Shown: positions 19,681-28,726 of the stretch, piece after piece | How the letters are laid out: each line of letters begins with the position of its first letter | Numbering within the stretch: position 1 is the first letter of the stretch | NCBI GenBank assembly: GCA_964589775.1 | Contig: CAZPUN010000013.1 | Span: 30,001 to 62,000 of the forward strand | Reading direction: 5' to 3' | Origin: an uncultured archaeon | GTDB lineage: Archaea; Asgardarchaeota; Thorarchaeia; Thorarchaeales; CAZPUN01 | Length of the DNA: 32,000 nucleotides | Position numbers and translations under genes: made by a program | Notes under the pieces: model-generated | Told to the model about the DNA's origin: nothing | The model's input: only the letters and a program-made list of their open reading frames with translations | Databases searched by the model: none

Positions 19681-19993
19681 TGGCGGGTAGGCCCGGGGCG
19701 TTTGCCGTGCCCTGTAACCCGTAATCGGCAATAGCGGGGGGCAGTAACCCAATGGAAGGCATACCTCCGCGGTAATGGCCTGCATGTCCCTACGATGATA
19801 CCCAGTCCCTTGGGGATACCGTTGGCGCAGCCACTCATGGAGGTGAGTGGCCAAGGCCAGAGGGAGCGAACCTGGCTAGGCCCGGGAGGGAGCAACCTAA
19901 GTTCCCGCGGTTATCGCTCAGGGGAGCACTGGGTTGAGGAATGGCATGCAATCAGCCATTATCGCGGGGTGTGTCGACCTGCGGGGGCCGCCA
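19681..19993 (+). ncRNA. ffs: Archaeal SRP (7S) RNA
   Basis: GC-rich, about 313 nt; terminal helix TGGCGG/CCGCCA; Alu CTGTAACC; helix 6 CCACTCAT-GGAG-GTGAGTGG; helix 8 TAGGCCC-GGGA-GGGAGCAACCTA. Confidence 0.95.
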
Positions 19994-27767: not shown

Positions 27768-27845
27768 TGGTGGGCTGGGGGAGATTTGAACTCCCGACCT
27801 CTTGAGCCCAAGTCAAGAATCATAGCCAAGCTAGACTACCAGCCC
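27768..27845 (-). tRNA. tRNA-Pro(TGG), no intron, CCA encoded
   Basis: GGGCTGG/CCAGCCC acceptor, CTTGA-CTTGGGC-TCAAG anticodon arm, TTCAAAT. Confidence 0.96.
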
Positions 27846-27846
27846 A

Positions 27847-27939
27847 TGGAGCCCCGGGCGGGACTTGAACCCGCGGCCTCCTCCTTACCAAGGAGGCGAT
27901 TTGGCCCTTTACTTGTCTAACCAACTGAGCTACCGAGGC
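27847..27939 (-). tRNA. tRNA-Thr(GGT) with about 16-nt D-arm intron (27901-27916)
   Basis: GCCTCGG/CCGGGGC acceptor, CCTCC-TTGGTAA-GGAGG anticodon arm; extra 16 nt in the D arm with only a relaxed BHB; 1 nt upstream of tRNA-Pro. Confidence 0.85.
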
Positions 27940-27991: not shown

Positions 27992-28193
27992 TGGTGGGGT
28001 CGACGAGATTTGAACTCGTGACCATTACCCCGAATTGCAGCGTATGCAATTCGCACAGGTTTCTCAAGGCTTGCCTCTCCAGAAGTTCATCATCTGATCA
28101 TCAGCAAACCTGTGTTGGCGCACAGCCTTCTGGAGCCTGCCGCGATTCAGGGCTTTTGGTATGACCAAGCATACCTGACTTCGCCACGACCCC
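27992..28193 (-). tRNA. tRNA-Trp(CCA) with three introns: 21/22 (28146-28171), 37/38 (28061-28129), 43/44 (28025-28054)
   Basis: Removing 26, 69 and 30 nt at BHB-like junctions gives a 77-nt cloverleaf with GGGGTCG/CGACCCC acceptor and GCAGG-CTCCAGA-CCTGT anticodon arm. Confidence 0.9.
28061..28129 (-). ncRNA. Box C/D guide RNA inside the tRNA-Trp 37/38 intron
   Basis: ACAGGTTT-G-CTGA (guide to C39), ATGATGA, CTTCTGGAG (guide to C34); same layout as the known euryarchaeal pre-tRNA-Trp intron guide. Confidence 0.82.
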
Positions 28194-28355
28194 ATCTATA
28201 TTCATCAAATAATGAGTTAACATTATAAAATAAACATTTCGATAATATCCTATCTGGGCGCTTTATTTTATGGCGCCTGTATATAATCTAAATTATATAC
28301 TTTGTGCAATTAAAGAAAACTTTATTTACAAAACTTATGATACTATGAATCGGTA

Positions 28356-28472
28356 TGCTGGCCATAGGTGGTGGTGATACGCCTGTTCCCATCTGAACAC
28401 AGAAGCTAAGACCACTACCGGTCCGCGTAGTAGTGCGGTGCGCGAGCCCGTGCAAGCCGCGGATAGCTAGCA
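28356..28472 (+). rRNA. rrf: 5S rRNA, unlinked to 16S/23S (ends approximate)
   Basis: Helix I TGCTGGC/GCTAGCA, GGCCATAG, CCTGTTCCCATCTGAACACAGAAGCTAAG, GCGAG loop. Confidence 0.93.
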
Positions 28473-28587
28473 GCCATTCTCTTCTTATTCTAATATCTCT
28501 GCTTATTAAATGGCATGAGATAACTATATCCAAAAATATACCTAACAAAAAGATTTAAACATAAAATATAATAAAATAAGAGTGTGT

Positions 28588-28726
28588 GCGGAGGTATCCA
28601 AGCCCGGTCAAAGCCTGTCGGCTTACCGACGACTACCTCTGAGAATGGGGTCAGGCGATCTAAGGAGCCAGACTTAAGATCTGGTCGAGTAGTCGTTCGC
28701 GTGTTCAAATCGCGCCCTCCGCACCA
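28588..28726 (+). tRNA. tRNA-Leu(TAA) with 51-nt intron at 21/22 (28612-28662)
   Basis: GCGGAGG/CCTCCGC acceptor, CCAGA-CTTAAGA-TCTGG. Strict BHB: GGTC/GATC helix, AAA and TAA bulges, GCCTG/CAGGC stem. Confidence 0.94.

Follow-up and report, generated by a model that had tools for sequence, protein, structure and literature searches.

The tRNA-Trp locus

The 32,000-nt stretch of archaeal DNA analysed here (the window) carries a tRNA-Trp(CCA) gene of 202 nt at 27992–28193 on the reverse strand, with an encoded CCA end; all coordinates given below for parts of this gene refer to that strand. Neither ARAGORN nor Rfam detected the gene in the window. Joining its four exons gives a 77-nt cloverleaf, which ARAGORN calls as tRNA-Trp(cca) and which, in gap-free alignments, is identical to three intronless Trp genes of Asgards at 61–63 of 74 positions, and all three splice junctions match these intronless genes exactly. 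By sequence alone each junction could slide by at most 1 nt, and the BHB geometry settles its position. Exon 1 (28172–28193; tRNA positions 1–21, including 17a) was assigned from its sequence and from its match to the intronless Trp genes, and exon 4 (27992–28024; positions 44–76) from the same match. Exon 2 (28130–28145; positions 22–37) holds the anticodon CCA at 28131–28133, and exon 3 (28055–28060; positions 38–43) is 6 nt long and has three alternative pairing partners. Upstream of the gene there is a BRE/TATA-like stretch (28223–28241, reverse strand), a predicted archaeal promoter, the upstream part of which is kept in a sister species.

No other credible Trp tRNA was found in the genome, the assembly of which is 96.75% complete. 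The one other 'Trp' call, made by ARAGORN on another contig (C18:33912–34084), was rejected as false as it has no tRNA features. The sister species (GCA_053985755.1 and others; DUF1512 94% identical to that of the host) has the same three introns in its tRNA-Trp gene with only five substitutions, all of them in intron loops or tips and none in splice helices, boxes or guides. Judged from its sequence, the locus is a real, conserved triple-intron gene with a reduced methylation guide aimed at its own tRNA, with splicing and methylation as predicted steps.

The genes near tRNA-Trp (PAN, GatD and GatE) are archaeal, and the best named relatives of the host EndA and DUF1512 are mostly from Thorarchaeota and other Asgards. 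The host is alone in its GTDB family and the one sister family in its order comprises 86 genomes; it probably belongs to a lineage that branches deep within Thorarchaeales. Introns are present in many of its tRNA genes. In the window, tRNA-Thr(GGT) (27850–27939, reverse strand) has a short D-loop intron, the middle of which differs in the sister species, and is directly followed by tRNA-Pro(TGG) (27768–27845). tRNA-Leu(TAA) (28588–28723, forward strand) has a long D-loop insert, which departs from that of the sister species at several positions, and was missed by ARAGORN and Rfam. A stand-alone 5S rRNA gene (28354–28475, forward strand) lies divergent from tRNA-Trp, and an archaeal SRP RNA (19681–19993, forward strand) is followed by tRNA-Val. 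ARAGORN also reported a tRNA-Phe with a 191-nt intron at C13:57847–58136; this call is false and fuses tRNA-Thr with part of tRNA-Trp. The false ARAGORN calls illustrate how standard annotation goes wrong here, and that both programs miss tRNA-Trp is of consequence for annotation.

Introns, splice motifs and processing machinery

A strict or relaxed BHB motif flanks each of the three introns, which together account for 125 of the 202 nt. Intron 1 (28146–28171; 26 nt) interrupts the tRNA at 21/22 with a relaxed BHB and an intron hairpin; its central helix of 4 bp pairs CAGG (28174–28177) with CCTG (28148–28151), and the sister species has two substitutions in it with the same boundaries. Intron 2 (28061–28129; 69 nt), at 37/38, houses the methylation-guide module. 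Its motif has three Watson–Crick pairs out of four in the central helix, with a C35–U mismatch, a 5-bp intron helix and both outer helices. Intron 3 (28025–28054; 30 nt), at 43/44, is identical in the sister species. It has an HBh'-type motif with no outer exon helix, in which a 4-bp central helix pairs ACCT (28057–28060) with GGGT (28027–28030) and the intron forms a 9-bp stem. The three insertion sites, the CAGG/CCTG and ACCT/GGGT helices, the 9-bp stem and the intron total had all been proposed in a first-pass annotation of the DNA, and each was reproduced here. Elsewhere in the genome, tRNA-Met(CAT) (C43:24974–25077, reverse strand) has a 43/44-type intron with an end much like that of Trp intron 3.

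The genome encodes a two-subunit EndA from unlinked genes (alpha at C23:43099–43353 and beta at C13:65571–65831). The alpha subunit is closest to Aeropyrum pernix EndA (E = 6e-51) and keeps the crenarchaeal specificity loop, with its lysine linked to broad specificity, as well as the catalytic Tyr/His/Lys triad; the catalytic His is absent from the beta subunit. Genes for the RtcB ligase and for fibrillarin, Nop5 and L7Ae-family proteins are also encoded.

The probable methylation guide in the 37/38 intron

The 37/38 intron has the layout of a box C/D guide with canonical internal boxes and eroded terminal ones. The box C site (28117–28123) reads GUGCGCC in place of RUGAUGA, with a C replacing the conserved kink-turn A; in Jordarchaeia homologues the same stem is followed by UGUGAAU. 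The D' guide (28106–28113) is complementary to the last 2 nt of the intron and to exon positions 38–43, and the N+5 rule places its target at C39. It is followed by a canonical box D' (CUGA, 28101–28104) and a canonical box C' (AUGAUGA, 28087–28093). The D guide (28077–28085) forms a 9-bp complement to C32–G37 and the first three intron nucleotides, in register for C34, and the box D site at N+5 from C34 (28071–28074) reads GCAA in place of CUGA. At 9 bp each, the two antisense elements are at the short end of the ∼9–12 nt range, and in a shuffle test of 9-nt guide complementarities each arose by chance once in 5000 and both together 0 times in 5000. Taken on its sequence, the intron acts like a C/D guide and yet lies outside the canonical four-box class, with its terminal C/D kink-turn, because GUGCGCC and GCAA are not C and D boxes. 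The intact C'/D' boxes and the two covarying guides bear out the earlier proposal that the anticodon intron carries a guide, and the guide probably methylates tRNA-Trp itself. That it pairs with its own anticodon arm is inherent in any Trp intron of this type.

Of 37 homologues, 16 have a D' guide that matches its target at 8 of 8 positions; they represent seven different guide/target sequence pairs, and the last two bases of the intron show compensatory changes. In about one homologue in three this guide to position 39 has decayed. In all 37, the C34 guide pairs by 8–9 nt with the intron-containing form and by only 7 nt with the spliced one, a conservation that is partly selected since this guide belonged to the search pattern, although that selection does not extend to its covariation with the first bases of the intron. 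The D' guide here also has a C that pairs with the first base of intron 3; we take this to be chance and not a guide built to read into intron 3, because by inspection the pairing is not kept in the other genes with a 43/44 intron.

The eroded ends raise the alternative that the guide is partly vestigial, with methylation at C39 alone or at neither site, and with the C34 antisense retained to block the 37/38 helix, in a role in folding or timing. CUGA occurs at the box D position in none of the 37 homologues (13 end in GA), which together with GCAA and the lost kink-turn A in this gene points in that direction; pairing of the C34 antisense in cis competes with the 37/38 helix in the folds, and the Haloferax volcanii intron is dispensable, as cited in PMC7714728. 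The canonical C'/D' boxes, the N+5 register that both antisense elements hold while covarying with their targets, and the presence of the fibrillarin, Nop5 and L7Ae-family genes argue against a vestigial guide, and we regard it as decidedly unlikely.

Recurrence in other archaea

With a tight pattern of box C' plus guide, which gave almost no control matches, guide-bearing Trp introns were found in nine Asgard families; direct sequence retrieval added a tenth, the Atabeyarchaeia. The named Asgard genomes are from Jordarchaeia, Freyarchaeia, Baldrarchaeia, Helarchaeota and Asgardarchaeum, and matches beyond the Asgards are from Bathyarchaeia, Nitrososphaerales, Nezhaarchaeota, Methanomethylicia and Undinarchaeota. 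Throughout this set from Asgard, TACK and Undinarchaeota genomes (L274–L313 and L314–L317) the C' box is canonical and the terminal boxes are eroded. The Trp genes of Atabeyarchaeia-1 and -2, which are tabulated with three and four introns, respectively, in the supplement of PMC11291895, have the C' box and the C34 guide, as does that of Freyarchaeia-1 (L277). Other searches were less productive: a BLAST-type search of 60 relatives matched only the T-arm ends of other tRNAs, three loose DNA patterns gave mostly chance matches, the sole match to a 5'-end pattern was the host's own tRNA-Trp and a related-locus search with GatD gave no match. Rfam was found to hold no family for the Trp 37/38 intron.

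The first-pass annotation had considered the combination of a guide and three introns in one gene unusual and had suggested a database survey. The genes collected here do not sustain that view: 17 of 34 distinct guide-bearing Trp genes, with this gene and its sister included and inserts counted by length, have three or four inserts, and eight genes outside the host family pair the guide with a 43/44 intron. These are two Helarchaeales-type genes (L291 and L292), four Bathyarchaeia genes (L281, L288, L293 and L313) and two Bathyarchaeia-like metagenome contigs (L190 and L231); L293, L313 and L190 have an identical layout of D-loop, 37/38 and 43/44 introns. The sample is motif-selected and its members are related, so the counts describe recurrence and not frequency. 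A recent Asgard census gives 2.2 inserts per gene in intron-rich Asgard families, with no mention of Trp or of a guide; by its own statement, splicing in an Asgard cell is on record for none of its newly identified intervening sequences.

The sister family (Thorarchaeaceae-like; L107–L127) has mostly single-intron Trp genes of another design, with an anticodon intron of 31–62 nt that lacks the TGGAG guide and contains a conserved GGGGTCA complementary to positions 30–35. Several of these genes have a T-loop intron too.

Competing pairings and the order of splicing

Nucleotides 38–41 have three mutually exclusive partners, namely the central helix of the 43/44 motif, the anticodon stem and the D' guide, in agreement with the first-pass annotation, which had held that these could not coexist. 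Using ViennaRNA, which leaves out kink-turns, protein binding, tertiary structure and co-transcriptional folding, the cost of forming each motif in the full precursor is 3.2 kcal/mol for 43/44, 5.7 kcal/mol for 21/22 and 6.3–7.3 kcal/mol for 37/38. Forming the 37/38 and 43/44 motifs together costs 10.8 kcal/mol, compared with 6.3 and 3.2 kcal/mol singly. The cost of the 43/44 motif drops to 0.5–0.9 kcal/mol after the loss of intron 1 or intron 2, and in each of the eight splice states, among the motifs present, 43/44 costs least and 37/38 most. The processing steps are thus predicted to be sequential, because the partners of exon positions 38–43 exclude one another and the joint motifs cost more. 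The further claim that this competition implies an ordered maturation found no support: mutual exclusion calls for one step at a time but does not by itself dictate an order, and the 43/44 motif has no outer helix either before or after 37/38 removal and forms at similar cost. On the folding models the overlaps at 38–41 would favour an order without forcing one.

No BHB motif in this gene is formed only by earlier splicing, and all of them can form in the full precursor. We considered whether removal of the 37/38 intron creates an outer helix for the 43/44 motif and rejected this, as there are no in-register pairs in ten genes and no gain in energy. In the same ten genes no outer exon helix was found at 43/44 either before or after 37/38 removal, and in seven of the ten the 43/44 cost with and without intron 2 differs by no more than 0.5 kcal. 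In the opposite direction, removal of intron 3 lowers the 37/38 cost in seven of eight other genes, although not in this one (7.3 to 6.8 and 7.6 to 8.1; 3.2 to 4.9 for the fragment).

These numbers bear on a stricter reading, in which the order is obligatory and the 43/44 intron gates the anticodon stem and the 37/38 motif, keeping the precursor open for methylation. A gate of this kind would suit the cost of the 43/44 motif, the lowest of the three, its incompatibility with the anticodon stem, the easing of 37/38 in the homologous genes and the occurrence of the guide with a 43/44 intron in three separate lineages; strictly ordered nested introns are also known in Thermoproteales, as covered in the review PMC3978253. 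The gate is unlikely nonetheless: the helix that splicing would have to create is absent in both directions, the 37/38 cost in this gene is not reduced by intron 3 removal, and the 43/44 intron is not tied to the guide, because most guide-bearing genes lack it and a non-Trp gene, the tRNA-Met on C43, has one.

In the lowest-energy fold of the naked precursor, a pairing of about 14 bp joins 28139–28152 (the end of intron 1 and the D-stem) to 28028–28041 (the 3' half of intron 3) and masks both splice motifs. It has P ∼ 0.005 against shuffles, in a post hoc comparison, and is absent from four Bathyarchaeia genes, so it is not a general device. An extended version of the gate makes use of this pairing. 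It holds that a single-kink form of the Trp intron guide, able to methylate C34 although it has no proper box D, is common to Asgard and TACK archaea, that in the lineages gaining the 43/44 intron (the family of this tRNA-Trp, Helarchaeales-type Asgards and Bathyarchaeia) this intron acts as a gate that enforces a splice–methylate–splice order, and that the 14-bp pairing is a latch in this gene. We think this combined scheme improbable.

A proposed maturation route

The reading that we consider fairly likely is that the gene yields a functional tRNA-Trp by the standard archaeal route, with sequential action of EndA and RtcB, guide methylation and a biased order in which the 37/38 intron leaves last. 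An (alpha-beta)2 EndA of broad specificity would cut the three relaxed motifs singly and RtcB would join the exons. The 37/38 intron would assemble an L7Ae/Nop5/fibrillarin particle, mainly on the C'/D' kink, and this particle would guide 2'-O-methylation at C39 and C34. It would most likely act in trans, and before the precursor has lost the 37/38 intron; against methylation of C34 stand the eroded terminal C/D and the missing textbook box D. The order would be a kinetic bias and not a lock, with 21/22 and 43/44 removed early, methylation next and 37/38 last. The 43/44 and 21/22 introns would be lineage-level gains on an old guide-bearing Trp gene common to Asgard and TACK archaea.

At the other extreme, the three introns could leave in random order as folds are sampled, with the excised circular intron methylating independently. 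Each motif is topologically possible in every intermediate, the D' guide also pairs with the spliced tRNA (with a G–U at 37) and circular Trp introns are common in archaea (PMC12558985), all of which this would accommodate. Motif costs that lie 3–7 kcal/mol apart and a C34 guide that spans the 5' splice junction make it very improbable, and the biased sequential route remains the reading that we prefer.

Comparison with known systems

The layout of this tRNA-Trp reveals no new kind of system. What it does is add Asgard and TACK archaea to the range of the self-aimed Trp-intron guide, which is textbook knowledge for Euryarchaeota, and in these archaea the terminal boxes of the guide are eroded; a literature search with most subscription journals outside its reach found no paper on such a guide in these groups. 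The 202-nt gene is also a compact substrate on which to ask how an (alpha-beta)2 EndA copes with motifs that overlap, and whether one kink-turn is enough for a C/D particle to methylate.

The closest counterpart of the guide is the euryarchaeal pre-tRNA-Trp intron, a box C/D guide for Cm34 and Um39 in H. volcanii and in Pyrococcus (sR50) (PMC7994747, PMC4090602, PMC7714728), which acts sequentially and in trans (PMC7994747). Both are 37/38 introns of tRNA-Trp(CCA), 69 nt long here against a median of 65 nt for Trp introns (PMC4090602), and in both the D' element addresses position 39 and the D element position 34 by the N+5 rule, with guides that span the splice junctions. They differ in that only C'/D' is canonical here, the terminal C/D being eroded, and in that the target is C39 and not U39. 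The host here is an Asgard with a two-subunit EndA, and its gene has two extra introns, one of which uses the target of the guide as a splice helix.

Multi-intron tRNAs have been described in Asgards, with up to five introns per gene (Valentin-Alvarado et al., 2024, PMC11291895; preprint 10.64898/2026.10.13.758758). The present gene shares with them the non-canonical BHB introns and the two-subunit EndA, whereas their extra introns lie in the D-loop and at 45/46 and 59/60; the main texts of both reports mention neither Trp nor the guide. Thermoproteales nested pre-tRNAs, according to the review PMC3978253, likewise have three BHB introns with overlapping motifs and an (alpha-beta)2 EndA. There the last motif needs prior removal of the others (Sugahara, 2007; Tocchini-Valentini, 2009; same review), and here none does. 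The multi-intron tRNAs of Cyanidioschyzon merolae (PMC3728597) resemble the order proposed here, with independent motifs whose removal is ranked by stability and 37/38 last. In C. merolae the order was shown by RT-PCR, with a eukaryotic enzyme and no guide, while in tRNA-Trp of the present host it is predicted.
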